Source of the DNA: an uncultured Clostridia bacterium
GTDB lineage: Bacteria; Bacillota; Clostridia; Christensenellales; Borkfalkiaceae
Assembly: GCA_944367415.1 (NCBI GenBank)
Contig: CALVWN010000035.1
Span: 1,212-65,211 of the forward strand
Direction: 5' to 3'
DNA: 64,000 nucleotides
This document shows positions 9,197 through 47,701 of this stretch, one piece after another. The position numbers and the translations under genes were made by a program. The notes beneath the pieces are model-generated. The model searched no databases. It had not been told where the DNA came from and worked only from the letters and a program-made list of their open reading frames with translations. Each line of letters begins with the position of its first letter. The stretch's first letter is position 1.

Positions 9197-9211
9197 ACAA
9201 GCAAGATCGTC

Positions 9212-16174: not shown

Positions 16175-16191
16175 TTTCACACAGATTTCAG

Positions 16192-16221
16192 AATGGGGTC
16201 GCCTGCGGGCGACCCCATTTT
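16192..16221 (+). terminator. Rho-independent terminator
   Basis: 12-bp stem AATGGGGTCGCC / GGCGACCCCATT, loop TGCG, short T tract. Confidence 0.8.
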
Positions 16222-16336
16222 GCATACTGTACGGACTTTTATATAATTTATTCCGATAAAACGACAGAACCGATAACTATAATTCATAATTATGCATAAT
16301 ATCCGCTATATTGATAGCAAAATTTGATCGATTGAT

Positions 16337-16366
16337 TTGACATCGGTGACAGATTTGTGATAAAAT
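16337..16366 (+). promoter_or_regulatory. candidate promoter (extended -10) of the 3277-aa gene
   Basis: TTGACA (16337-16342), 18 nt, TGATAAAAT (TAAAAT at 16361-16366). This leaves a leader of about 105 nt containing the hairpin GTTTCCG-GGCGGG-CGGAAAC. Confidence 0.5.
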
Positions 16367-16473
16367 AAGAACATGAAATGTTTCCGGGCGGGCGGAAACG
16401 ACCTTTGAACAGCGGCGCTGCCTGTGCGGTGCGGCTGTTTCGTGGAACATTGGAAAAATCATGGAGGTGTGCT

Positions 16474-25400: not shown

Positions 25401-26307
25401 CTCGTCGCTCGCTTCCTTCACAGTTGCTGCAAACAATGCCGACTTCATGTCGTTGGACGGGAATCTCTACAGCAAGGACGGAACGCAGCTCATCCGCTAT
25501 GCCGCAGGCAAGACGGAGACGTCGTTTGCGATCCCCGCAGGGGTCACGAGCATTGCGGCGGGCGCGTTCGACAGCTGCGGCGCGCTGCAGAGCGTCACCA
25601 TTCCTGCATCCGTGACGACGATCGGCGCAGGCGCGTTTGCACACTGCAAGGCGCTCACCGCCATCAACGTCGACGCCGCCAATCCGAACTTCTCTTCGAT
25701 CGACGGGAATCTCTACAGCAAGGACGGCACGACGCTCATCCAGTATGCGACGGGCAAGGCGGAGACGTCCTATGCGGTGGCGAACAGCGTGACGGCCATC
25801 GGCGCAGGCGCATTCAAGGGCGCCGTCAATCTGACGAGCGTGACGCTTCCCGAGACGGTCACGTCCATCGGCGCATACGCGTTCGACGGATGCAGCGGCT
25901 TGACTTCCGTCACCATTCCCGCCTCTGTGACGAGCATCGGCGCGGGTGCGTTTGCAAACTGCTCCAACCTGACCGCGATCAACGTTGCGGAGGGGAGCAC
26001 GCACTTCAAGTCCGTCGACGGCAACCTGTACAGCTTTGACGGCAGCGTCCTCGTTCAGTACGCGGTCGGCAAGACGGATACAACGTTCACCGTTCCGGAG
26101 GGCGTCACGACCATTGCGAGCGGGGCATTCGAGGGTGCGAAGCTCACGTCGGTGACCATTCCGGGCGACGTGAAGACGGTGCAGGCGGGCGCGTTTGAGG
26201 GCTGGACGAGTGCGCAGAGCCTCCTCGTAACGTTCAAGATGTACGGGGAACCCGACGGGTTCGCTTCCACCTGGGCGGAGAGGGCAACGATCGTCTACGC
26301 CGAATGA
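16474..26307 (+). CDS. giant BspA-like leucine-rich-repeat surface lipoprotein (3277 aa)
   Basis: ATG at 16474 follows GGAGGTGTGCT. The signal peptide ends LFAIAAC. In order the translation shows a lipocalin-like module, Listeria-Bacteroides repeats (DGYVFVGWYTD..., EGYTFLGWY...), five FN3-like modules (W.AV.GA..Y), and then about 2400 aa of LRR_5/BspA-type repeats (IG..AF..C..L..I.IP.SV). Stop is TGA. Confidence 0.9.
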   Translation: MRLKKWLIGVLTVIMSLTTLFAIAACKEDEPIDEEQPFQEGPEVGVYYYDTGLEEYQIVLSGNNQFTFLVMGENKTGTYTLTDTTLVLDFARAEDGEVTATLSDDVLSLTWQDSAMRFLRQISYSVTFDAQEGSAVGSVSVINGKTISRPDDPVRDGYVFVGWYTDTAHTTPFMFDAQPVTSNLTLYAYWLQKTPGSNEYTVDFDLGYDAEAPAAMQTTAGCLVSLPAPEREGYTFLGWYVSASDSAEKLTYEYTVGTKLNENTTLYALWEEDGDELAAPAVSVTATGVTWNAVSGSAIYFVTITGPDQETLVDNARVQTTYYEFDFTAQEAGEYLVSVSASSNLAGTGTLATASRYYVNRALARVSVFDVVEPSALIFEGVPNAERYYLTIDCGNDAHTHDMVALGKMTSYNFANCPMQEGGIRFVVTAEADGYVSSVSKEFVYNRELAQVTGLVYEAETQTFYWDAVADAMGYVVAVNGTTAEIGNVMSYSVDAFAAGEIVFSIYPVTKGYNSPVASTMTVTKAEPATPANIHVNDANCIVWDAVAGATSYTLSINGTTYSETENSFDLAQIIGEGVLEGTTFTVSVRANSDAASSLWSKEQTLEYLVMGGQLKYSANVFSWNDVVGAEYYDVQVNDGDIVTVRDANSAVVRLTQAGNNILRVRFGNASYLSDWRELTVFAYEIAFDSRGGTAVPSVYVANGDAISYPEDPEREDYRFDGWYTVPGGAEANGAQYGDQIFAEGANLILYANWVWIPTPSTVTLNAHYGALTEDVVEVLYGMDYTLEVPANTQERDERYVFNGWFSEPNGNGIRYTDMNGQGVSAWPTKGDTTLYASWLEVFSFTQTVDAVGNTVYAVAKGPEIGRMSSITIPATYKGVLVARIYSGAFDECITLTEINVPDSIVTIGSVSTSDAMGAFSGCISLMNVNVYEAEGDHDVYYWSEDGVLIYDNPQTQLTRLVYYPEARRGAYRIPDGVEEIPIRTFAEMEIPSITVPASVQYIRSAAFFGCTNLREVIFESGEGASLTIDDLAFQNCTALTSISLPKHLTQITADEAFLGCNALVNIFVEEGNAAYSSVDGLLCDASGTKVIFCPMGKSGVYNIPTGILEIGEAAFEGRDKLTEVNINAYVTSIGVNAFADCANLYRVTFATDAAATFDITIADYAFYNCTKLDTVTFSENVVGIGASAFGYCETLRELNLPGSLNSIGANAFQSCTHLTSVVFNGGEGTLTVGDAAFSDCVLLSTVTLSASVTSFDAVNVLAGCDNLESIEVADANPNYADIDGVLYTKDISEILYYPKFGSAEAITLPDTVKTIGESAFAGNGTITSLTIGGNVTLIEANAFDRCISLVTVIFENDGTEPLVLGEYAFANCPLIASVVLPDRLQSISNYAFNLNGSLKDVDFGNSIQQIGEYAFAGTALEEIVIPDTVTSLGVGAFDSCASLVRVEFPASMTTIGGSIFSNCPKLSEVIIPEGVTSIGERAFEGAASLSEIALPSTLVTIGEYAFADCTSLTSIEIPASVATIGRYAFDGCSALASVTFEAGTQPLTIDDYAFQYCTSITSIEFPTRLQQLGTTSGYLFRYGSLEIVTFAEGESQLEAISDFAFATANLISIELPEGLKTIGRRAFYNSGSGAQMESIVIPSTVTLIEEGAFYCQSALQSITFASVGKPMEELESLTIEESVFTGVTVESITLPKNLASITAPMFFAAANGGANSYDWRVELREIVLEEGNENFVLEGNILYEKNISGETETWSIALVPTGYTGALTVSNRVTSIPEYAFMLSRAESITLPDTITSIGNYAFNFASFSSVTIPGSVTTIGRAAFGYESRPSASSGHSDYVSPLKEVIFAEGTAELKITGNNAFKNTSITSIELPERLTSISGMYAFEATALTSVTIPASLATIGNYAFRNCEALTQVTFAPGCSLKTIGTSLFQNSGLQSIEIPASVTTINNNAFRDCKELTSVTFEAGGTAELTIANGSTSTSSTVSTSAGVFRGCDALTTITLPARLTLLGAFAFADCTSLKEVLFEEGSRLETIGNLAFWNTALEEIVIPAGVTTLGTASATTTTGAKYGVFLDCENLTSVTLPDDYSFQWNRFIGCTALEEINVTANNVEYSSQDGVLMSKDGYSLVYFPIGKNVGETYTVPSTVTTIEANAFYSNTTMYAKISGIVIPESVTEIGNNAFRYVPLESVVLPDSLTTLGTYLFANNKVLTEITIPAGITAIPNFMFQNCSALTEVHFAPNSRLTSIGNSAFDNSGLASIEIPASVESIGSSTFSYAAFESITFAPNSALTSIGAGAFEDSSLTEVELPDSVVTMGNYVFRDSPLLERVKLPSGITTIPMYTFQDCDSLKEVEFGDNVVEIARDVFKNCISLESIEIPAGVETMGQSVFYGCTGLKEVTFEEGSRLTSITSVTTMNSGIFQNCTSLERVDLPDSLGNIPNYAFSGCESLISIEIPEQAVEIGKQAFENCTGLEYVRISGSVESIGTSAFSGCTALSDVNFMSGLTTIGESAFSGCTSLTTVVLPDSVISIGSNAFANIDGLDLSVEDGNTAYIMDEHGVLYDSRMSSIISFPADLEGVFVVPDTVTAIPEGIFRGTSVTEVTLPASVTEISDSMFENAKNLTKVTINGRITSIGKRAFAGSGIRSITIGRYVTSIGESAFDGCANLKEVIFEANGSSALQIGDYAFRNCTSLENIELARRIRNMVVSTDSEDKITLGIGVSAFEGCTALKTVTFEQSGGWLLTEGLSIGASAFKNSGLESIVIPSTSGWVYNNVSTYGSHVPNLGESCFEGCVNLKDVTFEPIDNSYFYVGANLFKNCTSLEYIELPDEFCFLYKVGGNSRYASGLFAGCTSLKEAVITVSDLYATTTDVYAFDGCTALETVTIKVPAGLIYNCVNRNMFRDCTALKTVNIGHGVFGIGEQAFAGCSSLTTVSIPSSVESIGDRAFDGCSALTAIELPRLLEEIGEEAFAGCSSLASFTVAANNADFMSLDGNLYSKDGTQLIRYAAGKTETSFAIPAGVTSIAAGAFDSCGALQSVTIPASVTTIGAGAFAHCKALTAINVDAANPNFSSIDGNLYSKDGTTLIQYATGKAETSYAVANSVTAIGAGAFKGAVNLTSVTLPETVTSIGAYAFDGCSGLTSVTIPASVTSIGAGAFANCSNLTAINVAEGSTHFKSVDGNLYSFDGSVLVQYAVGKTDTTFTVPEGVTTIASGAFEGAKLTSVTIPGDVKTVQAGAFEGWTSAQSLLVTFKMYGEPDGFASTWAERATIVYAE

Positions 26308-26341
26308 CGGCATACGCTCGCTTCACTGCAAAATAGGGCAT

Positions 26342-26369
26342 CAAGTCATCGGAAAATTCCGATGACTTG
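26342..26369 (+). terminator. hairpin, possible terminator or attenuator after the giant gene
   Basis: Stem CAAGTCATCGG / CCGATGACTTG, loop AAAATT. Only a weak T-rich tail follows. Confidence 0.45.
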
Positions 26370-26409
26370 TACCTATTTATGAAGAAATTGTGAAAAGATA
26401 TTTCAAACA

Positions 26410-26439
26410 TTGGACATATTGTGAAAAGTATGGTATCAT
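26410..26439 (+). promoter_or_regulatory. candidate promoter of the MoxR/VWA operon
   Basis: TTGGAC (26410-26415), 18 nt, TGGTATCAT (TATCAT at 26434-26439). It is flanked by the direct repeat ATTGTGAAAAG at 26387 and 26418. Confidence 0.45.
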
Positions 26440-26456
26440 GAAAAAAGGAGGAGACT

Positions 26457-27527
26457 ATGAACAATAGCACTTTGTTTCAAAAATACTATCGCCGCCTCGT
26501 CGCGGAGGGCTGGTTGAAGTCATTGTTCTGGGGCTTTGACCTCGGCTGCCTGGTTCTTGCCGTTTCTTCGTTTATCGGGTGGGCAGTCGGTTTCGAGCCG
26601 ATGGTCTGGATCGCCGTCCTGATCGGCGCTGTCGTCTGGGCGATCGGCACGGTACTCCTCTACTTCGGGCTGTTCAGGCCGAATGAACAGAAAGTCGCGC
26701 GCAGGCTGGATGCGCTCGGCCTGGAAGAGCGCGCCGTCACGATGATGGAGCTGCAGGGGGAGGATTCGTTCATCGCCCTGCGTCAGCGCGAGGATGCGCA
26801 GAACAAGATCGCATCCGTCAAGAAGACCGATCTGAAAATGCATCCGATCGTCTCCGAGCGCAGCTCGTCGCGCAAGCGTGCGCTTGCTTTGACTGCGGCG
26901 ATCGTATTGCCTCTGCTTGCGGTCGCCATGTGCGTCATTTTTGCGTTGAGCATTTTCGGCATCCTTCCGAGCGGAAACAATATTTTCCATCCGCAGATCA
27001 ACAACTACATCAACGTGCATTATCTTGTCGATGACGGCGGGGTCATTCAGGGCGAAACGGAGCAGACCGTTCTGGTCGGCGGCGAAACGGAAAAGGTCGT
27101 CGCGGTTGCGGACTACGGCTATGCGTTCATCGGCTGGTCGGACGGAAATCCCAACCCGACCCGCAGCGACAAAGAGGTCGACAGAGAACTGTTCGTCTTT
27201 GCAATGTTTGCGGAGCTTGACTTTGGAGACGGGGACGGCGGCGAAAATGACGATTCGTCCCATGAGCTCTTTCCCGATCCGGATGAAAACAACGGCACTG
27301 TAAGCGACGACGACAGCAACAACGACCATCCGTTCCCGAACGATCAGGAGAACGATCAGAATAAAGATTTTATTTCCAATGATGAAGTGATCGACGGCGA
27401 AACAGATTATCCGGACGTCTATGCGCAGTATTACGAGATGATCATGGATGCGATCGCTTCCGGTCAGCTGACTTTGACCGACGAGCTGCGCGCTTTCCTG
27501 GAAGCATATTACAACAGTCTTTTGTAA
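26457..27527 (+). CDS. membrane protein with an extracytoplasmic Listeria-Bacteroides-like repeat and an Asp/Asn-rich acidic tail (356 aa)
   Basis: RBS is AAAGGAGGAGACT. The translation has an N-terminal TM hairpin plus a third TM, then YLVDDGGVIQGE...YGYAFIGWSDGNPNP, then DFGDGDGGENDDSSHE...SDDDSNNDHPFPNDQENDQ. It is the first gene of the operon. Confidence 0.7.
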   Translation: MNNSTLFQKYYRRLVAEGWLKSLFWGFDLGCLVLAVSSFIGWAVGFEPMVWIAVLIGAVVWAIGTVLLYFGLFRPNEQKVARRLDALGLEERAVTMMELQGEDSFIALRQREDAQNKIASVKKTDLKMHPIVSERSSSRKRALALTAAIVLPLLAVAMCVIFALSIFGILPSGNNIFHPQINNYINVHYLVDDGGVIQGETEQTVLVGGETEKVVAVADYGYAFIGWSDGNPNPTRSDKEVDRELFVFAMFAELDFGDGDGGENDDSSHELFPDPDENNGTVSDDDSNNDHPFPNDQENDQNKDFISNDEVIDGETDYPDVYAQYYEMIMDAIASGQLTLTDELRAFLEAYYNSLL

Positions 27528-27564
27528 TGCAGATAAAAATTATTTGAAAAAGGAAATAACAGAC

Positions 27565-28671
27565 ATGGTGACAGAGGAGAACATCCAGAAATTCAGCAAG
27601 CAATGCGCGAACATCTTCGAGCAGGTGGGGCGCGACGTGATCGGACAAAAGGACGTCGTCGAGGGCACGATCATTGCCATGATCGCCGGCGGCAACGTGC
27701 TTCTGGAGGGCGTGCCCGGCGTCGGCAAGACGAGACTTGTCCGTTCGCTCGGCAGAGTCTTCAACCTTCCTTTCTCGCGTATCCAGTTCACGCCCGACCT
27801 CATGCCCGCAGACGTGACGGGTACCAACATCATCGTCAAGGATGAGAACGGGAACTCGCAGTTCCAGTTCCAGCCCGGGCCGATCTTCAGCAACATCATC
27901 CTTGCGGATGAGATCAACCGTGCGACGCCCAAGACGCAGTCGGCGCTTCTGGAGGCGATGCAGGAGCATACGGTCACGGTCATGGGCGTGTCGCGCAAGC
28001 TGAACGAGCCGTTCTTCGTCCTTGCGACGCAGAACCCCATCGAGCAGGATGGTACCTATCCTCTGCCTGAGGCGCAGATGGACAGATTCATGTTCAAGCT
28101 CATCGTGCCCAATCCCGGGCTTGACGAACTCATGCAGATCGTCGACATGACGCAAAAGACGATGGCGGAAGTGGCGGACGCGGCGTGCAGCGGCGAGGAG
28201 CTGCTTGAAATGCGCCGTACGGCGAACCAGATCCCTGTTGCGGAGGACGTCATGCGGTATGCGATGACGCTCTGCTCGGCGACCCATCCCGACAGCGAGT
28301 GCGCGACCGTCGCATCGAAGCGCTATGTGCGCCTCGGCGCCAGCCCGCGTGCAGGTCAGGCGCTCATCTCGGCGGCGAAAGTCCGTGCGCTCATGAAGGG
28401 GCGCTTCAACGTCGCATACAGCGATCTCAACGAACTCGCGTATCCCGTTCTTCGCCACAGGATCAAGATGAACTTCGAGGCGATCGCGGCACGCATCAAG
28501 CCGGACGACGTCATCAAGATGATCGTCGACGAACTCAACGGAAAGAAACCGGAGAAGGCTGCGCCCGCAGCGGCAGCCGAGGCGGAGGCGCCTGCAGCGG
28601 CGGCCGAAGCGGAGGCGGAGACGACCGACGGAAAAAAGGGCAAGCGTAAATTCTTCGGGAGAAAGGAATGA
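27565..28671 (+). CDS. MoxR family AAA+ ATPase
   Basis: Contains VIGQKDVV...GGNVLLEGVPGVGKT (Walker A), ILADEINRA (Walker B) and NPIEQDGTYPLPEAQMDRF (AAA_3/MoxR pattern). A TTG at 27544 is an alternative start. The C-terminal tail is unusual: Ala/Glu-rich, then basic. Confidence 0.95.
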   Translation: MVTEENIQKFSKQCANIFEQVGRDVIGQKDVVEGTIIAMIAGGNVLLEGVPGVGKTRLVRSLGRVFNLPFSRIQFTPDLMPADVTGTNIIVKDENGNSQFQFQPGPIFSNIILADEINRATPKTQSALLEAMQEHTVTVMGVSRKLNEPFFVLATQNPIEQDGTYPLPEAQMDRFMFKLIVPNPGLDELMQIVDMTQKTMAEVADAACSGEELLEMRRTANQIPVAEDVMRYAMTLCSATHPDSECATVASKRYVRLGASPRAGQALISAAKVRALMKGRFNVAYSDLNELAYPVLRHRIKMNFEAIAARIKPDDVIKMIVDELNGKKPEKAAPAAAAEAEAPAAAAEAEAETTDGKKGKRKFFGRKE

Positions 28672-29567
28672 AAGGATCTTACTTAAACGATGAATTTTTC
28701 AGCCGTCTGGAGGCACTTGCCTTCAACCTTCGTGCGGATCTCGCAGGGTTTTTCGGCGGAAAACATCTTGTAAAGACATACGGCCAGACGGTCGAGTTTG
28801 CCGATTACCGCGAATATATGCTGGGGGACGACATCCGCCGCATCGACTGGAATCTGTACAGCCGCTTCGAAAAGTATTTCCTGAAGCTGTTCACGGATGA
28901 ACGTCAGATGCACGTCCGGATCTTTCTGGACTGCTCCGCGTCGATGGGGCGGGCAAATCCCCAAAAGGGCAGCTATGCGATCGCCGTTGCCGCGGCGATC
29001 GGATTTCTTGCGATCCATAATATGGACAAGGTCTCCTTTCAGCTCATTCGCGGCGACCGTGCGGAGAATCCGTTCGGCACCATGATCGGGAAAAACGCAT
29101 TTTTCCGTGCGATCGGGGAACTTGAGAATATTACCTTCGAAGGCGAATCCAACCTGTCCGAGGCGATCACGGGATGCGGCGATACCGGAACGAATGACGG
29201 GATGACGGTGATCATTTCCGACTTTTTCACGGAAAACGATTGGAAAAAGGCGGTGGATTACCTGTGTTTCAAAAAACGTCAGGTCATGCTCATCCAGGTG
29301 ATGACGCCGGAGGAAGCGGATCCCGCGTACAGCGGGCGCGTCAATCTCATCGACGCCGAGGCGGAGACGCTGGAGGACGGGCGCAATATGAAACTGCGCA
29401 TCACGCGCGGGATGCTGGAGGCCTATACGGAAGCCCTGCGGGATATGCTGGGTGATATCCGTTCGTTCAGCGCATCGCGCGGCGTGGATTTTATCACGCT
29501 GCAAACCGATCAGCCGATTGAGCGCGCGTTGTTTGGCGAGCTCATAAAAGTAGGAGTCATGGGATGA
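28668..29567 (+). CDS. DUF58 domain protein (VWA-like, MoxR partner)
   Basis: ATGA overlap with the moxR stop. Contains the DYREYMLGDDIRRIDWNLYSR motif characteristic of DUF58, followed by a VWA-like FLDCSASMG segment. Confidence 0.9.
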   Translation: MKGSYLNDEFFSRLEALAFNLRADLAGFFGGKHLVKTYGQTVEFADYREYMLGDDIRRIDWNLYSRFEKYFLKLFTDERQMHVRIFLDCSASMGRANPQKGSYAIAVAAAIGFLAIHNMDKVSFQLIRGDRAENPFGTMIGKNAFFRAIGELENITFEGESNLSEAITGCGDTGTNDGMTVIISDFFTENDWKKAVDYLCFKKRQVMLIQVMTPEEADPAYSGRVNLIDAEAETLEDGRNMKLRITRGMLEAYTEALRDMLGDIRSFSASRGVDFITLQTDQPIERALFGELIKVGVMG

Positions 29568-31510
29568 TAGAATTACTTGTGCCTCTCGGGCTTTTGGGGT
29601 TGATCGGAATCGCCGTTCTTATTCTGATCTATATCTTAAAGCCCAATTATCAGCAGAAGATCGTATCGAGTACATACGTCTGGAAGCTGAGCTTGCGATA
29701 CAGGGGGAAGAGGATCCCGGTCAGCCTGCTCAGGAGCCTTCTTCTTTTGCTGTGTCAGATCCTTGCGCTGACGGCGTGCGCGTTTATTCTCGCGCAGCCC
29801 GTGATCCCTGCCGGCGCCGAGCGGGATGAAAACGAACAGATCCTCATCATCGACGCTTCTGCCAATATGCTTGCGGCAGACGAGAATATGACGCGGTTCG
29901 AGCGCGCCGTCGATCTTGTGATCGAGCAGGCGGGGCAGGTTTTGAACGAATCGGGCGTCGTCTCCGTCATTCTTGCGGATGAAGAGGCGGAAGTTCTCGT
30001 CAACCGTGCGGATGAGTCGCAGCGGCTGGAGGTTGTGGATGCGCTCGACGAATTGGTCGCAGGAGGGGCGCTGCGCTGTTCTTACGGGGCGGCGGATCTG
30101 GAGGGCGCCATGTCGCTTGCGACGCGCATCCTCGACCTGAACCCGTTTGCGGAAGTCTATTATTTTACTGCGACGGAATATGTGAACGAAGGCGACGTCA
30201 CCGTTGTCGACGTGAGAGGGGAGCGCGATTGGAATGCCGCCATTTTGGACGCGGAGATCTCGCTCGAAGAAAATTTTTACACCTTTACGGTGGATCTTGC
30301 AAGTTACGGCAGGGCATCGTCGGTCGATCTGCACTGTGATATCTACGGCGCCAATAACGATCGCGTCACAGTCTCCCTCGTCTATCCGAATATCCAATGC
30401 GCGATGGGGGAGACGCAGACGGTCGTCTTTCGTACCGGGGTCAATGAGGCGCCCGTTTCCTGCGAAATTCCGGTCTCCGCTTATGACAGCGTCCTCATCT
30501 GGATCGAGATCCCGGAAGAGGACGGATATTCTTACGATGACACCATTACGCTCTATGGCGGCCGTCCCGAGGCCATCAATATCCTGTATGCGAGTTCCAA
30601 GATGAATCCGTTCGTCAGCAACGCTCTGATGGCGCTGCGCAGCGAGCTTGCGCTCCGCTGGGATATCAAGATCCAGGAGGAGCGTGTCGGCGGAACGACC
30701 TATGAGGAGGTCGCGGAGGGCTACGATTTCTATGTCTTTGAGGGAGTCGCTCCGGAAGTGTATCCTGCGGACGGCGTCGTCGTTCTTCTCGATCCGCCCA
30801 CGGTGATCAATCGCACGGACATCATTTTCGGAAATCAGATACAATATCCCAATCCCGGTATCGACATGACGATCGGGGAGCCGCATCCCATCACGGACGG
30901 ATTGATCCAGAGTTACCTTTCGGCAACGCGTTATACGCAGATCCTTGCCTCCAACGGGTATGAGGCGCTCATGTTTATCGGTGAAGATCCGGTGCTGATC
31001 TATAAAGATCAACCGGGTTCCCAGATCGTCGTGATGCCGTTCAGCGTCAATTATACGTCGTTGCCTCTCGTCAATCTTCCCACATTGTTCTACAATATTT
31101 TCAACTATTATATCCCTTCGGCCGTGACCAATGCGGAAGGGGAGGCGGGCTTCATGTTTGAAATCGGCGATACCGTCGATCTGAGCGCGCGCGGTACGGG
31201 ATTGACGCTGACCGATCCGTCCGGAACGGAGACACCGATCGATTCGTCCTTTGAGCAGATCGTTGCGGAACAGCCGGGCGTCTATCGCGTGACGCAGGTT
31301 CTCTCTTCCGGGATGATGCAGACCAGCGAGTTCTACGTCAAAGTCGCGGCTGCGGAAAGCGATGTGACGCGCACGGAAGATACACTGTTCAATCCGGCAT
31401 TTCCGGAGCTTCCCGAAAATGAAGACCTCGATCTGTTGTTCTATTTTGCGATCGGTCTTGCGGCACTATTATTCATCGAATGGCTGTTACAGCTCAAGGA
31501 TAATTTCTGA
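29564..31510 (+). CDS. BatA-N (aerotolerance regulator N-terminal double-TM) domain protein with a degenerate VWA-like region and a C-terminal TM
   Basis: ATGA overlap with the DUF58 stop. The N-terminus LLVPLGLLGLIGIAVLILIYILK...R is BatA-N like. IIDASANM (29852-29866) is a degenerate MIDAS. The C-terminal hydrophobic helix is FYFAIGLAALLFIEWLL. Confidence 0.8.
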   Translation: MIELLVPLGLLGLIGIAVLILIYILKPNYQQKIVSSTYVWKLSLRYRGKRIPVSLLRSLLLLLCQILALTACAFILAQPVIPAGAERDENEQILIIDASANMLAADENMTRFERAVDLVIEQAGQVLNESGVVSVILADEEAEVLVNRADESQRLEVVDALDELVAGGALRCSYGAADLEGAMSLATRILDLNPFAEVYYFTATEYVNEGDVTVVDVRGERDWNAAILDAEISLEENFYTFTVDLASYGRASSVDLHCDIYGANNDRVTVSLVYPNIQCAMGETQTVVFRTGVNEAPVSCEIPVSAYDSVLIWIEIPEEDGYSYDDTITLYGGRPEAINILYASSKMNPFVSNALMALRSELALRWDIKIQEERVGGTTYEEVAEGYDFYVFEGVAPEVYPADGVVVLLDPPTVINRTDIIFGNQIQYPNPGIDMTIGEPHPITDGLIQSYLSATRYTQILASNGYEALMFIGEDPVLIYKDQPGSQIVVMPFSVNYTSLPLVNLPTLFYNIFNYYIPSAVTNAEGEAGFMFEIGDTVDLSARGTGLTLTDPSGTETPIDSSFEQIVAEQPGVYRVTQVLSSGMMQTSEFYVKVAAAESDVTRTEDTLFNPAFPELPENEDLDLLFYFAIGLAALLFIEWLLQLKDNF

Positions 31511-31522
31511 GGAGGTACGGGT

Positions 31523-34279
31523 ATGTCTGATTTTGAGATCGTTTTTTCCCAACCTCTCTGGTTGCTGCTTCTGATCCCGGTGCTGTTTTTTGTGCTGTTT
31601 CCCTATTTCAGGCTGGAAAAAAAGTATCGCCGCACGAGAAACCGCATCATTTCCATTGTTTTACATTGTCTGATCATGCTGCTTGCGATCTCTTTGATCG
31701 CAGGGATCCAATTTACATACACCTTGCCCAATGAGGCAAACGAAGTATTGCTGCTCGTCGATGTTTCGGACAGCAGCGAGCAGTCGCGCGAGGCCAAGGA
31801 CGAATACGTCCGGTCGGTGATCGATGCCAAACTTCCCACCATTCAGCTGGGGATCGTCACGTTCGGATACAATCAGGTCTATGCTGCCGAGCTGAGCTCC
31901 GATAACGATTTGCTGTACGATGCGTATCTGGATGCACCGCTTCCCGACACGACGGCAACTGATTTTGAGAGTGCGCTCCGCTATGCCCGTACGCTGATCA
32001 CACAGCCGGAGTCGGCAAAGATCATTGTCGTCAGTGACGGCGATGAGACGGACGGCGCCGCGCTTGAATACATTGCAACGCTTGCGGCGGAGGGGATCAA
32101 GGTCGATACGGCGTTTTTCCCCAATGAGAACGCAAATAACGAGATCCGCATCGTCGACGTGCAGTTCCCCGAGGGCAGCCTTTCGGTCAGGAGCGAATTT
32201 GAACTTCTGCTCACCTTGCAGACCAATGAGGTGTTGGAAGCCGGGCAGGCGCACTTGGTGCGGGTGGTTCCCTACGATAACGATGTTGCGGGCGAAGAGC
32301 AGTTGGTCACGTTGAGCGGCGGAAGCCAGACGGTCTCGATCCCGTTTTCCTTTGCGGAGCCGGGATTGCATCGTGTCAGTTTCAGGATCTCCGACTACGA
32401 GAACGGCGGTGACACGCTGACGGAGAACAATCTCTACAACGCCTACTATTATCTGGAAGTTTACGACGATCTGTTCATTCTCGAGCGTACGGCGGGGGAA
32501 TCGGCAGAACTTGCTGCCGTCCTGGAGGAAGCAGACTACAATCTGACCGTGATGACGCCCGCAAGTCAGGATCTTCCCGCGACCGTTGACGAACTGCGCG
32601 AATATGATGAGGTCATTCTCTACAACATCGCCAACGCGGATATGCCGGTCGGATTTGACGCCATTCTCAATTCCTATGTGAGCGACTACGGCGGAAGCCT
32701 GTTTACGGTGGGCGGACGCACGACGGATGATAGCGGAAAAACGGTCGCAAACGCATACAACCGCGACGACCTGCGCGGAACGCTTTACCAGGAGATGCTC
32801 CCTGTGGAGGCGGTCGACTATACGCCGCCCATCGCCGTCGTCTTTATCATTGACCGCTCCGGCAGTATGATGGGAAACAAACTGGAGCTTGCCAAGCAGG
32901 GCGCTCTGGAGAGTCTGAGCATTTTAAGTGCGAGAGACTGGGTCGGCGTCATGACGCTGGAGGAAGAATATTCCGAGGAGCTTGCGCTCACGCCCATTCC
33001 GCAGCTTGCCGACATTGAGGAAGCGATCAATTCGATCGAATCGGGCGGCGGCACAAATTATACGGGCGCGTTGATTCGTGCGGGCGCGGCGCTCTCCATG
33101 TGTTCGAGCGTGCAGCAGCGCCATATCGTCATACTCAGCGATGCGATGCCGTCCGATCACCTTTGGGCGGATGCGATCAACCAGACCGGCGGGTACGGCG
33201 GCGCCATCAAGAGCAACTATGAGAACTACGGGATCACCACGACGATCGTTTCGGTCGGTACGGGCGGAAATTCTTCGGATATGCAGACGGCGGCAGAGGT
33301 CGGACACGGGAACTACTATGAAGAAACCGATATGAACCGCCTCGCCAATCTGCTCATGGAAGATCTGCAGGCGACCAACGTGCTTGAGTACGAGGATTCG
33401 GAGCCGTTTACGCCGCGCATCGACGACGTGACGACTGTCGTGCAGGGGATCGTCCAGTCGCAGATCCCGCAGTTGGGCGGATATTTCGGAACGCGGCTCA
33501 AATCCGGTGCAGATCAACCGCTCATCACGCCGCACGACGGTGTGCCCGTCTATGCGCAGTGGGATTACGGAAACGGCAAAGTCGGGAGTTTCATGTCGGA
33601 GCTTTCGGGTGAGTGGGCTGCAGCCTTCTATCAAAGCGAGACGGGAATTCAGCTCATATATAACATGATCACGGCGTTGTATCCCGATGAAAGCGTCAAG
33701 CCGCAGAATGTCGACCTTCGCCTCGAGCGGCAGAATTATACGACAGAAGTCAATATCTTCAATGTTCTCGAAGGGGAGACGGCGGAGATCACGGTGACCG
33801 GGCTGGAAAGTGCGGACGGGTCTGCTCCCGTGGCGGTGGAAGTCATTCAGCCGACTGCGGCGGATCATTTCAGCAGTGCTTCCTTTGTCATCCGTGAGCC
33901 GGGATACTATTCCGTACTTGTAGAAAAAAAGGATGCCGACGGAAATGTGATCGCTTCGGCAACGCAGTATGTGTCGTTTTCCTATTCTGCGGAGTACAAA
34001 TACTTTGTCGATGAGGAGGCGTCGGAGCAGTTTCTGTCCGATCTTGCCGCGCAGGGCGGCGGGGAAAGCATCGAGGAGGCCTGGCAGGCGTACGAGAACC
34101 TTGTCCTTCGCCTGAACCGCTCGTTTGATCCGCGCATTTTGTTCTCTATCCTCATCATCGTCATGTTCCTGCTCGACGTTGCGGTGCGCAAGTTCAAATT
34201 CAAGTGGCCGCACGAGATCATTCGCGATCACAGGGAGCGGAAGAAACTGATGCAGGACAACAAGACCTCGCTGTTATGA
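31523..34279 (+). CDS. BatA-N / double VWA domain membrane protein (918 aa)
   Basis: RBS is GGAGGTACGGGT. After a BatA-N style N-terminus there are two canonical MIDAS motifs, DVSDS (31760-31774) and DRSGS (32852-32866), with a GATase1-like segment between them (EYDEVILYNIANADMP...GGSLFTVGG). A C-terminal TM is present. Confidence 0.85.
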   Translation: MSDFEIVFSQPLWLLLLIPVLFFVLFPYFRLEKKYRRTRNRIISIVLHCLIMLLAISLIAGIQFTYTLPNEANEVLLLVDVSDSSEQSREAKDEYVRSVIDAKLPTIQLGIVTFGYNQVYAAELSSDNDLLYDAYLDAPLPDTTATDFESALRYARTLITQPESAKIIVVSDGDETDGAALEYIATLAAEGIKVDTAFFPNENANNEIRIVDVQFPEGSLSVRSEFELLLTLQTNEVLEAGQAHLVRVVPYDNDVAGEEQLVTLSGGSQTVSIPFSFAEPGLHRVSFRISDYENGGDTLTENNLYNAYYYLEVYDDLFILERTAGESAELAAVLEEADYNLTVMTPASQDLPATVDELREYDEVILYNIANADMPVGFDAILNSYVSDYGGSLFTVGGRTTDDSGKTVANAYNRDDLRGTLYQEMLPVEAVDYTPPIAVVFIIDRSGSMMGNKLELAKQGALESLSILSARDWVGVMTLEEEYSEELALTPIPQLADIEEAINSIESGGGTNYTGALIRAGAALSMCSSVQQRHIVILSDAMPSDHLWADAINQTGGYGGAIKSNYENYGITTTIVSVGTGGNSSDMQTAAEVGHGNYYEETDMNRLANLLMEDLQATNVLEYEDSEPFTPRIDDVTTVVQGIVQSQIPQLGGYFGTRLKSGADQPLITPHDGVPVYAQWDYGNGKVGSFMSELSGEWAAAFYQSETGIQLIYNMITALYPDESVKPQNVDLRLERQNYTTEVNIFNVLEGETAEITVTGLESADGSAPVAVEVIQPTAADHFSSASFVIREPGYYSVLVEKKDADGNVIASATQYVSFSYSAEYKYFVDEEASEQFLSDLAAQGGGESIEEAWQAYENLVLRLNRSFDPRILFSILIIVMFLLDVAVRKFKFKWPHEIIRDHRERKKLMQDNKTSLL

Positions 34280-34289
34280 GGAGGGCTTC

Positions 34290-37115
34290 ATGAGAAAACT
34301 GAAAATCACCTTCATTTTTGCCGCATTGATCTGCTGCCTGTTTGCGTTGGCGGCCTGCGGCGGATACAAACTTCCCGCTCCGAACGGATTGTATATCAAT
34401 TCCGATACGCTGGAGCTTTCATGGTACAGCGTGGAGGAAGCGAACCGGTTCCGGATCGAAATCAACGGATCGGAGATCGATTCCTCCGTCCGGCAGACCT
34501 CCTATTCTTTGGAAACGCTGGAGCCGGGCAATTACACCATCCGCGTCAAAGCGACGGACATCACCGGAACATACCGCGATTCCGCATGGTCGGATTCCAT
34601 CGAGTTCGTCCGTGAGGAGGAATCGGGGCTTTCCTTTGAACTGCTCAACGGAAGAACGTCATATGCGGTGGTCGGCATCGGCACGGCGACGGGGGACGTC
34701 GTCGTGGAAGATTATTTCCGCGGAAAGCCGGTGACGGAGATCGCAGAGAATGCATTCTCCGGCGCCAGCTCGATTACGGGCATCACGATCGGAAACAATG
34801 TGACGAGCATCGGTGACTATGCCTTCTATTATTGCACGTCTTTGAAATCGATCCGGATCCCGGACAGTGTGACGCAGATCGGTGTCAACGCCTTTCAGAG
34901 CTGCCAGTCCCTGGAGGAGATCGACCTTCCCGATTCCATCACGGCGATCCCCGATTTTGCCTTCTCTTACTGCCGTGCGCTCAAACAGATCGAGATCCCG
35001 GCAGGGGTGACGCAGATCGGAACGTATGCGTTCCGCGATTGCAATGCGCTGGAACGTGTGACGATGTCGGATCAGGTCGTTTCGATCGGGGAAAGTGCCT
35101 TTTACAACTGTTCTTCGCTGACGCAGATCGATCTTTCCGACGGGCTCCTGTACATCGGCGCCAAAGCGTTTTATGCCTGCGGATCGCTCCGGGAGGTCAC
35201 ATTCGGGAGCAAACTTCTCATGATCGATTCCGAGGCGTTTTCCTCCTGTACGGCGTTGACGGAGATCCTGCTGCCCGATGTGCTCTATTCGATCGGGAAC
35301 AACGCCTTTGAAAATTGCACAAGCCTTGAAACGGTACATTTCCCGCAGGAGCTGCAGACCATCGGCGCGCGGGCGTTTCTCGGATGTACCTCGCTTGCAG
35401 ATGTCAACTTCGGCAATGACGTCATTTCGATCGGGGCATATGCATTTTCGGGGACGGCGCTGTGGGAAAATACGCCGGACAGAGAGGTCGTCTATGCAGA
35501 CGACTGGGCGATCGGATATAAGGAAGTGGAAGGAGAGACGGCGTCTTTCACGCTGCGGGACGGGACGGTCGGCATCGGCGATGACGCGTTTTATGGGTCT
35601 TCCATACAATCCATCGTTCTGCCGGATACGGTGCGGCACATCGATACCTATGCGTTTGCCTACAGCGATCTTGCCGGGATCGTGCTGAGCGCCGATCTGG
35701 AACGGATCGGGCGAGGGGCTTTTCTCGGCTGTGAAAATCTGATGGCGGTGACGACGACTTTCTCGACCAGACTGCGGGAGATCGACGACTATGCGTTCTA
35801 TTTCTGTCCGCGCCTGAGCAGCATTGATCTGCCCGATTCCGTCGAGACGATCGGAACATACGCCTTCAACGAGACGGCGATGTGGAACGCGGGCGGCATC
35901 ATCTATGCGGACAATTGGGTCGTCGGGTACAACGGAGACATCCAAAATGCCGTACTCCGGGCGGGTACGGTCGGGATCTCCGATCTGGCATTTTATGAAT
36001 GTACGACCTTGCGGAGCGTGACGCTTCCGGAAGGGTTGAAGGAGATCGGGTTAGGTGCTTTTTACGGATGCGAATCTCTGACAGAGGTCACCATTCCCGA
36101 CAGCATCGAAGTGATCGCCGACTATGCGTTTTACGGGTGTTATTCTCTCAGCACGGTGACGTTGGGAAACAATGTCAGAGAAATCGGACAATATGCATTT
36201 TTCGGGAATATTTTCCTCAGTTCCATTGTGCTTCCTGAAAGTCTGACGACGATCGATGCGTATGCATTTTATTTGTCCGGACTGTCGAGCCTGACCATCC
36301 CGGACAGTGTTACGACCATCGGAACGAGTGCGTTCTATGGCAGCGGTCTGGAGCAAGTGATCATCGGTTCCGGGGTTCGGGAGATCGGGCAGCGCGCCTT
36401 TCAGAATTGCTCCTTTTTGTCCGACGTGACGTTCCGGGAAGGTCTTGAAACGATCGGCGCGCGCGCATTCTACGGATGTCCTTCCCTTGCGTCCGTCAGC
36501 TTCCCCGATAGTTTGCGGACGATCGGAGAGTATGCGTTTTATAAAACGAATTTGGTGGCGGCGAACATCGGTTTGAGAACGATCGACTTCGGAACGGGTG
36601 TTGAGGTGATCGGCTCCCATGCATTTACAGGGAACAATTCTCTTTCGACGGTGTATCTTCCCGAGAGCGTCACTTCCGTCGGAGATCAGGCGTTCCGCGA
36701 TTGCTTGGGACTGAGCTGCATCATGATCGGAAGCAATGTTGTCGAGATGGGAAGCCATGTGTTCTATAACTGTGTCTTTGCCGGGATCTTTTGTGCGGCG
36801 CAGTCGCAGCCCGAAAGCTGGGAAAGATTCTGGAATTCTTCCTATCGGCCCGTTCTCTGGGGATGCACGTTCTCGGAAGACGGCTATGTGATTTCGTACA
36901 CGAAAGGGGAGATCGGCAATGCAATCGAAGGGAATGATCTGCGCGGCCCCACGCGGCTTGGATACTCGTTGGAAGGTTGGACGACGGTGAACGGATCGAC
37001 GACTGCGGAATATATGACGGAAGATCTCTATACGCTGGAAGAGGGAACGACGGTTTATACGATATGGACAAAAACGCAGGAACCGGAGGAACCGGCCGAA
37101 GAGCCGGCGGCATGA
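34290..37115 (+). CDS. BspA-type LRR surface lipoprotein (941 aa), last gene of the MoxR/VWA operon
   Basis: It starts 10 nt after the preceding stop, after GGAGGG. The signal peptide ends LFALAAC. The translation shows an FN3-like module (LELSWYSVEEANRFRIEINGSEI), a long LRR_5 array, and a C-terminal Listeria-Bacteroides-like repeat (LGYSLEGWTT...TVYTIW). Confidence 0.85.
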   Translation: MRKLKITFIFAALICCLFALAACGGYKLPAPNGLYINSDTLELSWYSVEEANRFRIEINGSEIDSSVRQTSYSLETLEPGNYTIRVKATDITGTYRDSAWSDSIEFVREEESGLSFELLNGRTSYAVVGIGTATGDVVVEDYFRGKPVTEIAENAFSGASSITGITIGNNVTSIGDYAFYYCTSLKSIRIPDSVTQIGVNAFQSCQSLEEIDLPDSITAIPDFAFSYCRALKQIEIPAGVTQIGTYAFRDCNALERVTMSDQVVSIGESAFYNCSSLTQIDLSDGLLYIGAKAFYACGSLREVTFGSKLLMIDSEAFSSCTALTEILLPDVLYSIGNNAFENCTSLETVHFPQELQTIGARAFLGCTSLADVNFGNDVISIGAYAFSGTALWENTPDREVVYADDWAIGYKEVEGETASFTLRDGTVGIGDDAFYGSSIQSIVLPDTVRHIDTYAFAYSDLAGIVLSADLERIGRGAFLGCENLMAVTTTFSTRLREIDDYAFYFCPRLSSIDLPDSVETIGTYAFNETAMWNAGGIIYADNWVVGYNGDIQNAVLRAGTVGISDLAFYECTTLRSVTLPEGLKEIGLGAFYGCESLTEVTIPDSIEVIADYAFYGCYSLSTVTLGNNVREIGQYAFFGNIFLSSIVLPESLTTIDAYAFYLSGLSSLTIPDSVTTIGTSAFYGSGLEQVIIGSGVREIGQRAFQNCSFLSDVTFREGLETIGARAFYGCPSLASVSFPDSLRTIGEYAFYKTNLVAANIGLRTIDFGTGVEVIGSHAFTGNNSLSTVYLPESVTSVGDQAFRDCLGLSCIMIGSNVVEMGSHVFYNCVFAGIFCAAQSQPESWERFWNSSYRPVLWGCTFSEDGYVISYTKGEIGNAIEGNDLRGPTRLGYSLEGWTTVNGSTTAEYMTEDLYTLEEGTTVYTIWTKTQEPEEPAEEPAA

Positions 37116-37132
37116 ACTTTTGAAACGGCAAA

Positions 37133-37165
37133 CGGGGCGCAGACCGGTTTGCGGCGTGCGCCCCG
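37133..37165. terminator. hairpin between the convergent LRR gene and rarA
   Basis: 9-bp GC stem CGGGGCGCA / TGCGCCCCG with a 15-nt loop. There is no clear T run, so confidence is modest. Confidence 0.5.
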
Positions 37166-37181
37166 CCTCTGACGGGCAGTG

Positions 37182-38507
37182 TCATTGTTTTTTGTGTTCT
37201 TCTTTCCAGGCTTTGATCTGTTCGAGCCGCGCTTTGAATTTGCTCTCCAGGCCTTCCTCGGTGGGCGTGTAGTATTCCCGCCCGACGAGGTTGTCCGGAA
37301 GGCACTGCATGGTGGTCAGTTTGTCGTCGGCGTCATGCGCATATTCATACCCTTTGCCGTAGGAAAGCTCCTTCATGAGCTTGGTCGGCGCATTGCGGAT
37401 GACGAGCGGAACAGGCTCCGCGAGCATGGTGAGCGCATCCTTTTTGGCGCGTTCATAGGCGACGTAGAGAGCGTTGGATTTCGGGGCGAGCGAGAGATAG
37501 ACGACCGCCTGCGTGAGGTGGACGCTGCATTCCGGCATCCCGATGAGGCGGCACGCCTCGAATGCCGAAACGCACAGCTCGAGCGCGCGCGGGTCGGCGA
37601 GACCGACGTCCTCGCTCGCGAACCTCGTCACGCGGCGGGCGATATAGATGGGATCCTCTCCCGCTTCCAGCATCCGCGCCAGCCAATAGACGGCGGCGTT
37701 CGGGTCGGAGTTGCGCATGGATTTATGCAGCGCGGAGATGAGATTGTAGTGTTCCTCACCTTTTTTATCGTACAAAAGCGATTTCTTTGAGGTGATCTGC
37801 TCGATCGTCTCGGCGGTGACGACGGTCTTTTCGCCCTCGAGCGTGCCGTTCAGCACCGCCATTTCGAGCGTGGAGAGCGCGCTGCGCGCGTCGCCGTTGG
37901 CAAAGTTCGCGATCGCCCGGAGCAGTTCTTCCGAGATCTCCACCTCCTGATTGCCGAATCCGCGCGGATCTTTGAGCGCGTGATGCAGCAGCTCGCACAG
38001 CTCCTCCGGGGAAAGCTCGTGCAGCACGAACACCTTGCAGCGGGAGAGGAGCGCGCCGTTGATCTCAAAAGAGGGATTTTCCGTCGTGGCGCCGATGAGG
38101 ATGATGCTTCCCTTTTCGACATAGGGGAGAAAGGCGTCCTGCTGCGCCTTGTTGAAGCGGTGGATCTCGTCCACAAAGAGGATAGTCTTTCCGCCGAAGC
38201 GCCTGTTCTTTTCCGCCTGTTCCATGACCTGTTTGATCTCTTTGATCCCGCTCGTCACGGCGGAGAAGTCGATGAACGTCGCCTTGGTGCGTTGGGCAAT
38301 GATGCGCGCGAGCGTGGTCTTTCCCACGCCGGGCGGCCCCCAGAAGATCATCGAGCCGATCTGGTCGCTTTCGATGAGGCGGCGCAAGATCTTCCCTTCG
38401 CCCAAGAGGTGCTTTTGTCCGCAGTATTCTTCCAGCGTGCGCGGCCGGATGCGTGCCGCAAGCGGCTGGCTTGTCCGATCATCAAAGAGTGTTCCCTGTT
38501 CCAGCAT
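37182..38507 (-). CDS. rarA: replication-associated recombination protein A (RarA/MgsA AAA+ ATPase)
   Basis: ATG at 38507 (MLEQGTLFDD...). Contains PLAARIRPRTLEEYCGQKHLLG, FWGPPGVGKTTLA, LFVDEIHRFNKAQQD and ATTENPSFE. The ORF-track N-terminal extension to 38780 was rejected. Confidence 0.95.
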   Translation of the reverse strand: MLEQGTLFDDRTSQPLAARIRPRTLEEYCGQKHLLGEGKILRRLIESDQIGSMIFWGPPGVGKTTLARIIAQRTKATFIDFSAVTSGIKEIKQVMEQAEKNRRFGGKTILFVDEIHRFNKAQQDAFLPYVEKGSIILIGATTENPSFEINGALLSRCKVFVLHELSPEELCELLHHALKDPRGFGNQEVEISEELLRAIANFANGDARSALSTLEMAVLNGTLEGEKTVVTAETIEQITSKKSLLYDKKGEEHYNLISALHKSMRNSDPNAAVYWLARMLEAGEDPIYIARRVTRFASEDVGLADPRALELCVSAFEACRLIGMPECSVHLTQAVVYLSLAPKSNALYVAYERAKKDALTMLAEPVPLVIRNAPTKLMKELSYGKGYEYAHDADDKLTTMQCLPDNLVGREYYTPTEEGLESKFKARLEQIKAWKEEHKKQ

Positions 38508-38651
38508 ATCTGTTTCCGTCTGTGAAAAGATTTGTTTGAAGATATTATATGCCTTTCCGGGCAGAATGTCAATGTGATGGCGAAAAATGGGTGCGGGGCC
38601 GCGAAAAAATCCTTCAGGGATTGCGGCGGGATCGGAACGGGGGAAAACGTT

Positions 38652-41267: not shown

Positions 41268-41296
41268 ATCGAAACAATGATAAGGAGAAAATACAG

Positions 41297-46738: not shown

Positions 46739-46771
46739 CAAAAAAATCTTCCCCGCGGGGAAGATTTTTTT
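46739..46771. terminator. bidirectional Rho-independent terminator
   Basis: AAAAAA, then stem ATCTTCCCCG / CGGGGAAGAT, then TTTTTTT. It lies between the convergent giant gene and metA. Confidence 0.8.
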
Positions 46772-47681: not shown

Positions 47682-47701
47682 GGGAACTTCCTCTCACATC
47701 G

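Follow-up and report, generated by a model that had tools for sequence, protein, structure and literature searches.

The 64,000-nucleotide (nt) stretch of DNA considered here, which we call the window, comes from an uncultured bacterium of the Clostridia, family Borkfalkiaceae (contig CALVWN010000035.1, positions 1,212 to 65,211 of the forward strand). At positions 26,457 to 37,115 it carries a run of six genes, g1 through g6, encoding in turn a membrane protein with three transmembrane segments, a MoxR-type AAA+ ATPase, a DUF58 protein, a membrane protein with BatA_N and VWA domains, a second membrane protein with two VWA domains, and a leucine-rich repeat (LRR) lipoprotein (Table 1). The six occur in this order wherever the contig permits, in 79 of 79 testable loci of related bacteria. 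The unit is best read, in our view, as a complex at the cell surface that is under cytoplasmic control. It is probable, though well short of certain, that the products form one functional unit, with MoxR and DUF58 in the cytoplasm and g1, g4, g5 and g6 associated in the envelope; that MoxR-DUF58 couples the two halves across the membrane is offered with far lower confidence.

The relatives were collected by a search with g5, which returned hundreds of full-length homologues (about 900 residues) from uncultured Clostridia. An alignment of 15 of these was scanned against one genome per GTDB species, with 291 matching; the best 80 loci were taken with 10-kb flanks, and gene order was called by comparing the six window proteins, using phmmer, with all open reading frames (ORFs) of those loci. 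Among the 80 are Ca. Scatosoma, Ca. Gallimonas, 'Subdoligranulum sp. CAG:314', and the cultured Anaerocaecibacter muris CLA-AA-M11 (family Pumilibacteraceae). Gene g6 follows g5 in 78 of them. In L005, which might have passed for a cassette lacking g6, tblastn reveals the gene, broken by frameshifts and a gap of Ns, and L065 is untestable because the contig ends. A scan of metagenomes with a 7-sequence alignment likewise found g6 after g5 in 65 of 65 testable contigs from within the clade, a redundant sample with many contigs from the same species. The original prediction, made from the window alone, had held the LRR lipoprotein to be a dedicated member of the cassette rather than a chance neighbour, and would have given way if orthologous cassettes never carried an LRR or repeat-protein gene at either end. 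The relatives show the opposite.

The genes of the unit are tightly packed in these loci. Genes g3 and g4 overlap by 4 nt in 71 of 71 cases, the median distance is -1 nt between g2 and g3 and 13 nt between g4 and g5, and g5 and g6 are separated by a median of 21.5 nt and overlap in 19 of 78 loci, 17 times by 4 nt; the locus of Anaerocaecibacter muris (L016) is one with a 4-nt overlap. Upstream of g1 there is a giant LRR ORF in 52 of the 56 loci having upstream sequence, at a median distance of 232 nt. What lies 3' of g6 varies: an extra same-strand lipoprotein of about 1060 residues, which combines Big_3 Ig-like domains at its N-terminus with a long helical part, in 35 of 80 loci; a Flg_new protein of 1500-1800 residues in 17; and a convergent rarA in the three closest relatives and in the window, from which the Big_3 lipoprotein is missing. 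Since the genes past g6 vary, the linkage ends exactly at g6, and the constancy of g1 through g6 amid variable surroundings suggests that the six-gene unit is under selection, beyond inherited synteny. Where the gene for the Big_3 lipoprotein is present (L015, L006, L033 and L063 are examples), it mostly begins 0-114 nt after g6, with 309 nt in L018. Three metagenome-assembled genomes have two divergent cassettes each (L007/L008, L042/L044, L053/L079), and a g6 comes with each. The two g5 proteins of such a pair are 40-55% identical, so that either the entire unit was duplicated long ago or the bins are mixed.

Is the last gene the same gene in all these loci? Domains were called with Pfam, and by this measure g6 is of the BspA LRR type, matching LRR_5 above the gathering cut-off in six stretches (578.9 bits). 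Its N-terminus, MRKLKITFIFAALICCLFALAAC-G, constitutes a lipobox, the signal peptide ending ...LFALAAC-G at residues 17-24. Of 77 sequences, that of the window and those of 76 orthologues, 70 show the strict lipobox pattern and most of the others a variant of it; g6 and its orthologues are accordingly named here as predicted lipoproteins. Behind the LAAC of the lipobox come an FN3-like N-terminal domain, the LRR_5 array, and a C-terminal domain resembling Listeria-Bacteroides repeats, with the GYxFxGW...LYAVW motif typical of them. Orthologues range from 870 to 1025 residues. The N-terminal 115 residues match the ORF in the g6 position in 78 of 78 loci and the C-terminal 97 residues in 76 of 78; that ORF is the sole match to these non-LRR ends among the fetched loci, never the giant LRR paralogues, and in the window the ends match only g6 itself. 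Judged by its ends, then, g6 is a genuine orthologue family, not just any LRR gene. The median identity across loci to the window protein is 35% for g1, 80% for MoxR, 69% for DUF58, 39% for g4, 43% for g5 and 39% for g6, and since the value for g6 is close to those for g4 and g5, it evolves in step with its membrane partners. The protein was also considered as HupY/LrrG (NCBIfam equivalog NF047961) and rejected, its score of 264.5 bits being far under the cut-off of 1250; the NCBIfam search of the six proteins added nothing decisive.

The signals in the DNA are consistent with a single operon, short of proof, and from them we infer co-transcription. Analysis of ORFs and domains reproduced exactly the six genes, domains and coordinates first read from the window, as well as the junctions, which from g1 to g6 measure +37, -4, -4, +12 and +10 nt, the two of -4 nt being ATGA overlaps. 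Motifs like ribosome-binding sites stand ahead of the ATG of g1 (AAGGAGG) and within the +12 and +10 nt gaps (GAGGAGG and GGAGGG). Folding recovered both of the hairpins noticed at the outset, before g1 and after g6. The first is likely a terminator that parts the cassette from the giant gene upstream, g0. The second has a weak U-tract on the plus strand and is likely a bidirectional terminator. Within the unit, terminator-like matches are at the level of chance (15, compared with 12.7 +/- 3.5 in shuffles), with none at any gene junction, in keeping with the earlier statement that there are no internal terminators, and the 10-nt gap between g5 and g6 is too small for a promoter or terminator that would cut off the last gene.

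The two VWA proteins are anchored in the membrane at both ends. In g4 (Pfam BatA, 34.4 bits with a cut-off of 25.9; VWA_2, 30.9 bits), a BatA_N hairpin of two transmembrane segments is followed by a VWA domain predicted to be extracytoplasmic, about 400 residues of unassigned ectodomain and a C-terminal transmembrane segment. Its hydrophobic segments are at about 1-25, 58-80 and 622-642, and it has a motif, D97-x-S99-x-[S/N]101, like the metal-ion-dependent adhesion site (MIDAS) of VWA domains. The N-terminal layout of g5 is the same, without a Pfam match to BatA; its hydrophobic segments cover residues 12-30, 39-59 and 871-891, approximately. Pfam finds VWA_2 (83.4 bits) and VWA (67 bits) in two stretches of g5, as well as GATase1_like (35.6 bits), and an AlphaFold2 model (predicted local distance difference test, pLDDT, 86.7) places in order VWA1, a beta sandwich, a Rossmann-like domain, VWA2, GATase1_like, an Ig-like domain, the C-terminal transmembrane segment and a cytoplasmic helix. 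In Foldseek searches the VWA fold of g5 matched the aerotolerance-related protein 4jdu of B. fragilis and BatB of B. thetaiotaomicron (3ibs), with template-modelling scores of about 0.72-0.74 on the target, and also VWA proteins that bind ligands extracellularly (the pilus adhesins SpaC and PitA, ITIH1, and alpha2-delta). The idea that g4 and g5 are recent paralogues was dropped, as BLASTP finds no significant similarity between them.

Both MIDAS sites of g5 are well preserved. In 81 sequences, one of them gapped at the VWA1 columns, VWA1 has D80 in 80, S82 in 79, S84 in 68 (T in 12), T146 in 75 (S in 5) and D172 in 80, and all five VWA2 residues (D444, S446, S448, T511 and D540) are present in 81 of 81. 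The orthologues have a median net charge of +7 in the loop between the first two transmembrane segments of g5, +6 in its C-tail and +9.5 in the g4 loop, while segments just outside the membrane are negative. Because this pattern obeys the positive-inside rule, most of g4 and of g5, including their VWA domains, is predicted to be extracytoplasmic, as has been shown experimentally for the VWFA domain of the Borrelia homologue BB0173, which faces the periplasm (PMC5700661). In the predicted topology, a check that the original prediction had called for, one outer face is thus common to the VWA domains, the LRR protein and the ectodomain of g1. The best-conserved 20-residue stretch of g5 is its cytoplasmic C-tail, LLDxAVRKFKFKWPHEIIRD (conservation 0.89), in which R889, K890, F891, K892, K894, W895 and E898 are invariant and H897 occurs in 80 of 81 sequences. 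This juxtamembrane tail looks like a docking motif for some cytoplasmic partner. The tail motif, which lies within window 33950-34279 (residues about 810-918), is retained in the consensus of outgroup proteins 31-41% identical.

The first gene, too, had been taken to encode a dedicated member of the cassette, a view borne out by its place at the head of the locus in relatives and by a homologous first gene in outgroups. The AlphaFold2 model of g1 (pLDDT 81.6) has two long transmembrane helices, three cytoplasmic helices, a third transmembrane segment, a beta domain, a disordered acidic linker and a helical hairpin. By residue, the cytoplasmic loop occupies 75-120, the extracellular beta domain, similar to the B-repeat of InlB, 184-253, the linker 260-312, and the C-terminal hairpin 318-355. 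Again the best-conserved 20 residues are cytoplasmic: they lie in the loop (conservation 0.75), and within its residues 81-115, D85, E91, R92, T95, Q110 and R111 are invariant in 59 orthologues, with G88 and L89 invariant or nearly so. The Pfam match of g1 to Flg_new_2 (22.7 bits) falls just short of the cut-off of 23.6; PF18998 is present in many members of the family. Residues 13-98 align with positions 12-98 of DUF4175 (PF13779) at 11.3 bits, and three g1 relatives reach 23.9 (P0153), 23.1 (P0169) and 15.9 bits (P0158) in the same region, all below the cut-off of 27.3. These scores hint at a remote link between the N-terminal membrane module of g1 and the large uncharacterised DUF4175 family, in whose literature we found nothing related to this cassette. 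A known fold for g1 was sought in vain: Foldseek gave no match in the PDB at E < 0.1, the top one being a Flg_new-type domain of Listeria at E 0.42. The third-weakest g1 match, P0172, was discarded as a cassette member, since it lies in a phage-like region and is similar through the B-repeat alone. A phage-like region in L082 (also L083) encodes a protein of 332 residues that matches 68% of g1, along with Mtd_N (of the type targeted by diversity-generating retroelements), proteins like YorF and YorH of SPbeta, gyrase and DnaB. The g1-type leader and the g6-type lipoprotein are newly defined protein families, previously undescribed.

No hydrophobic segments are seen in the remaining two proteins, MoxR and DUF58, which are predicted to be cytoplasmic. 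MoxR (AAA_3, 208.6 bits with a cut-off of 27; AAA_lid_2, 59.8 bits) has Walker A (GVPGVGKT) and Walker B (DEINR) motifs that are invariant in 60 of 60 orthologues, and with its lid, its intact Walker motifs and the adjacent DUF58 gene it is a MoxR AAA+ ATPase of the MoxR Proper type. DUF58 (120.2 bits) has a VWA-like fold with a DxSxS motif, whose D88, S90 and S92 are invariant in 68 of 68 orthologues; a comparison by sequence with solved structures gave no matches. In RavA-ViaA, CbbQ-CbbO and NorQ-NorD, a MoxR ATPase works through an adaptor with a VWA/MIDAS domain that binds the target, and by analogy DUF58 is presumed to be the adaptor of MoxR.

What might such a unit do? According to the model, one transcription unit would produce a two-compartment machine in a monoderm gut Clostridium. 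The cytoplasmic half would consist of the ATPase and its DUF58 adaptor, and the envelope half of proteins whose ectodomains share the outer face: g4 and g5, pinned at both ends and with MIDAS sites intact, the B-repeat of g1, and the lipid-anchored g6. The VWA proteins would serve as a scaffold that holds g6 and the ectodomain of g1, possibly also the giant LRR/B-repeat neighbours. Such a surface scaffold is favoured because four ectodomains are encoded together and coupled in stoichiometry by overlapping or tightly spaced genes. MoxR-DUF58 would act upon the short cytoplasmic segments of g1, g4 and g5 to assemble or remodel the scaffold; these segments are natural candidates as targets because they are the sole cytoplasmic parts of the three proteins, short, highly conserved, and furnished with invariant acidic residues.

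The distant cassettes, drawn from contigs of remote g1 and g5 relatives and from metagenome loci L091-L094, L109, L122, L133 and L148, bear on where the sixth gene came from. They all share the core of a g1-like first gene, MoxR, DUF58, a BatA_N/VWA protein and a double-VWA protein. Their g1-like proteins retain the N-terminal module of three transmembrane segments, the cytoplasmic RLDxxGLEERxxTM motif and the C-terminal helical hairpin, but the middle differs from that of g1, being a coiled coil or, in L087, a Flg_new domain. The sixth slot is variable (Table 1): it holds most often another lipoprotein, in three loci nothing, and in L089 a true g6 orthologue. Since outgroups usually put another lipoprotein there, the slot seems to be one for a surface partner, and on the sequences compared the LRR lipoprotein is a lineage-specific fixation, within one large clade, of a variable accessory slot in a Clostridial five-gene cassette. 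The original prediction had seen the TPR/BatC-E positions of a Bacteroides operon as replaced by adhesin-type proteins. As worded this is not supported, for the nearest outgroup cassettes are of Clostridial type and likewise lack TPR genes. Pfam reports TPR families for none of the six proteins (E <= 0.01) and for no outgroup cassette, and the BatD family has no Pfam match in the six proteins. Because the outgroups share the five-gene core and the variable sixth slot, without TPR, the unit is not a Bacteroides-type Bat operon with the TPR genes swapped. A CotH kinase-like domain, with Listeria-Bacteroides repeats or aBig_2, recurs in the outgroup sixth-slot lipoproteins. In L086, the most distant cassette found, MoxR and DUF58 are separated by the gene of an ABC-transporter ATPase and by those of two proteins without assignment (561 and 475 residues).

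Several observations weigh against a single surface machine that includes g6. Because the outgroup slot is empty or holds unrelated proteins, the five-gene core evidently can function without the LRR protein. These genomes abound in proteins with LRR_5 or Flg_new, and in the window four such proteins flank the unit. In 8 of 78 loci the gap between g5 and g6 exceeds 100 nt, so g6 may in some cases have its own promoter. Conservation of order within the clade can partly reflect common descent. Finally, to our knowledge the way in which a cytoplasmic ATPase would act on extracytoplasmic domains has been established for no system of the MoxR/BatA type.

The first three of these points are what one might expect if g6 were a passenger, an independent adhesin that uses the promoter of the cassette or a permissive slot behind it, binding no VWA domain and depending in no way on MoxR. 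We consider this unlikely, yet it is the rival that deserves the most attention. A passenger would hardly be retained at every testable locus and contig while g5 diverged to about 40% identity and the genes past g6 turned over, nor does free riding sit well with the 17 ATGA-type overlaps of g5 and g6. In addition, all copies of g6 belong to one orthologue family, whose end domains are unique to it, and g6 changes at a rate like that of g4 and g5, rather than at the fast rate typical of adhesins.

Perhaps the client is not g6 at all but the giant LRR/B-repeat proteins, g0 and others, with the unit serving their export, anchoring or maturation and the VWA scaffold and g6 as the dock. The frequency with which a giant LRR gene lies directly upstream, and with which giant Flg_new proteins or Big_3 lipoproteins lie 3' of g6, would then make sense, and g0 itself ends in an LRR cap, with no membrane segment visible in its last 260 residues. 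This too seems improbable, more so than a passenger gene, for g0 is set apart by a strong hairpin and, in relatives, by the wide median gap, and neither 4 of the loci nor any outgroup cassette has the giant gene upstream.

Or perhaps, with the same low probability, the surface complex is an adhesion switch operating from the inside out, as integrins do. In this extension, MoxR-DUF58 would grip the g5 tail (RKFKFKWPHE) and the g1 loop, and ATP would alter the state of the extracellular MIDAS sites, deciding whether the surface retains, displays or lets go of g6 and the giant LRR/B-repeat adhesins; the invariant glutamate of the g5 tail could possibly be a MIDAS ligand. If true, the switch would give Bat-like MoxR/DUF58/VWA cassettes a general role, the regulated display of surface partners encoded in the variable slot downstream.

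The Bat loci of Bacteroides and their counterparts in spirochaetes, Francisella and Riemerella invite a different interpretation, that the unit is a classical module for stress or aerotolerance, as has been proposed for Bacteroides, Francisella and Riemerella, with the LRR protein incidental. These loci (PMC3557215, PMC5700661, PMC11834572) have much in common with the cassette: the same succession of MoxR (AAA_3), DUF58, and proteins with a BatA_N hairpin and a MIDAS-bearing VWA domain, the fold matches to 4jdu and 3ibs noted above, and in BB0173 (PMC5700661) a VWA domain outside the cytoplasmic membrane, as predicted here. Bat loci have, however, the TPR proteins and BatD not found in the six proteins, whereas the cassette has much larger VWA proteins (648 and 918 residues), anchored at both ends and with GATase1_like and Ig-like domains, the leader with three transmembrane segments, the terminal LRR_5 lipoprotein, and a monoderm host. 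A stress module leaves the fixed LRR and B-repeat members unexplained, and we regard it as very unlikely. The aerotolerance role is itself unsettled, because bat mutants of Leptospira are reported to have no oxidative-stress defect (PMC3557215). A role in conflict with phage, of the MoxR-VWA ternary type, is extremely unlikely: the weak bpMoxR match (35.8 bits, beneath that to AAA_3) is countered by the lack of a beta-propeller or effector domain in the cassette proteins, by PADLOC matches that are all weak and generic to ATPases, and by housekeeping flanks and strictly vertical conservation unlike those of a defence island.

Other known systems resemble the surface complex in part. A four-gene operon encoding MoxR, DUF58 and two large membrane proteins is broadly conserved in Proteobacteria; that of Rhizobium leguminosarum (RL3499-RL3502) reportedly bears on envelope integrity and cell morphology (work attributed to Vanderlinde and colleagues, 2011). 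The core logic is the same, but the host is Gram-negative and there is no adhesin-type partner. RavA-ViaA, CbbQ-CbbO and NorQ-NorD likewise place MoxR beside a cytoplasmic VWA/MIDAS protein thought to bridge ATPase and target, but the enzymes targeted there, whether soluble or in the membrane, share that compartment, while the candidate targets here are short cytoplasmic segments of mostly external proteins. BspA-type proteins (BspA of Tannerella, HupY/LrrG of Streptococcus) share with g6 a long LRR_5 array and predicted anchoring at the surface; g6 differs in its own FN3-like and Flg_new-like end domains and in being encoded within a MoxR/VWA operon. The PFNA cluster of Bifidobacterium (pkb2, fn3, aaa-atp/MoxR, duf58, tgm) is also a gut Gram-positive operon that pairs MoxR(MRP)-DUF58 with a surface protein, a species-variable FN3 protein thought to contact the host (PMC8430577). 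It belongs to a different phylum, has a transglutaminase-like protein and a Ser/Thr kinase instead of BatA_N/VWA proteins, and has no LRR protein. A full-text literature search for MoxR with DUF58 and leucine-rich repeat found no description of such an arrangement.

The neighbours of the cassette in the window bear LRR_5, Flg_new and Flg_new_2, and g6 bears LRR_5 and a Flg_new-like C-terminal domain, so the sharing of modules with the giant proteins that had been read from the window stands. As to the labels of those modules, LRR and Listeria-Bacteroides repeat are confirmed, and the FN3-like one, at g6 residues about 25-105, is weakly verified by a Y_Y_Y match of 18 bits, under its cut-off. 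The giant gene g0 is probably its own transcription unit and a frequent upstream neighbour of the cassette. Of the two giant ORFs downstream, the longest-ORF calls overlap by about 100 nt. Towards its flanks the window carries housekeeping genes (FeoB, RNase R, GltX, BipA), and no tRNA genes were found in it. The G+C content of the cassette region (window 26001-38000) is 0.54-0.57, below that of the flanks (0.59-0.645), and G+C is highest, for the whole window, in the downstream giant Flg_new genes (38001-48000 compared).

Table 1. Features of the window and of related loci (coordinates refer to the sequence named in the first column)
Sequence	Feature	Position	Strand	Description
Window	g1	26457-27527	+	356 aa (amino acids), membrane protein with three transmembrane segments
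Window	g2	27565-28671	+	368 aa from ATG, MoxR-type AAA+ ATPase; alternative start TTG at 27544
Window	g3	28668-29567	+	299 aa, DUF58 protein
Window	g4	29564-31510	+	648 aa, BatA_N + VWA, predicted double-anchored membrane protein
Window	g5	31523-34279	+	918 aa, double-VWA, predicted double-anchored membrane protein
Window	g6	34290-37115	+	941 aa, predicted LRR_5 lipoprotein
Window	Promoter-like sequence	26411-26439	+	TGGACA-17 nt-TATCAT, extended -10 TG; 10/12 consensus positions, top + strand site of the region; consensus match only
Window	Upstream hairpin	about 26342-26373	+	12-bp perfect stem; -27.5 kcal/mol, z -6.9, 0/200 shuffles as stable
Window	GC-rich hairpin between convergent g6 and rarA/mgsA	about 37134-37165	either	about -32 kcal/mol; z -1.8 (+), -2.6 (-)
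Window	Giant protein	10379-16174		LRR_5 + Flg_new (Pfam)
Window	g0, giant surface protein	16378-26307	+	3309 aa; LRR_5 x20, Flg_new x3
Window	rarA/mgsA	37182-38780		convergent with g6
Window	Giant ORFs	38532-41267 and 41162-46738	+	Flg_new and Flg_new_2
L093	Sixth slot	12717-14669		Flg_new + CotH lipoprotein
L133	Sixth slot	7533-9611		Flg_new + CotH lipoprotein
L088	Sixth slot	12665-14635		aBig_2 + CotH lipoprotein
L122, L148	Sixth slot			aBig_2 lipoproteins
L090	Sixth slot	2346-4262	-	unassigned 851-aa lipoprotein
L084	Sixth slot			secreted metallo-beta-lactamase-fold protein
L085, L086, L091	Sixth slot			empty
L089	Sixth slot			true g6 orthologue, hidden Markov model 748 bits, LRR_5 455 bits; g5 of this locus 34% identical to window g5
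L086	Most distant cassette	2367-10004		insertion between MoxR and DUF58
L015	Big_3 lipoprotein gene	15643-18879		3' of g6
L082	g1-like protein	10001-10999		332 aa, phage-like region

MoxR/DUF58/VWA ('Bat-like') cassettes are widespread, but for 25 years their job has been obscure, the phenotypes of knock-outs being mild or inconsistent. That one large clade of gut Clostridia has locked in an LRR protein, a surface protein of recognisable ligand-binding type, and that sister clades have other lipoproteins in its place suggests that the cassette serves partners at the surface and not oxygen tolerance in itself. The LRR lipoprotein is a concrete candidate for such a partner. Specific candidate contacts can be named as well, in the tail of g5, the loop of g1, the MIDAS sites and the end domains of g6, and since the cultured Anaerocaecibacter muris carries the cassette, they may be approached experimentally in that organism.

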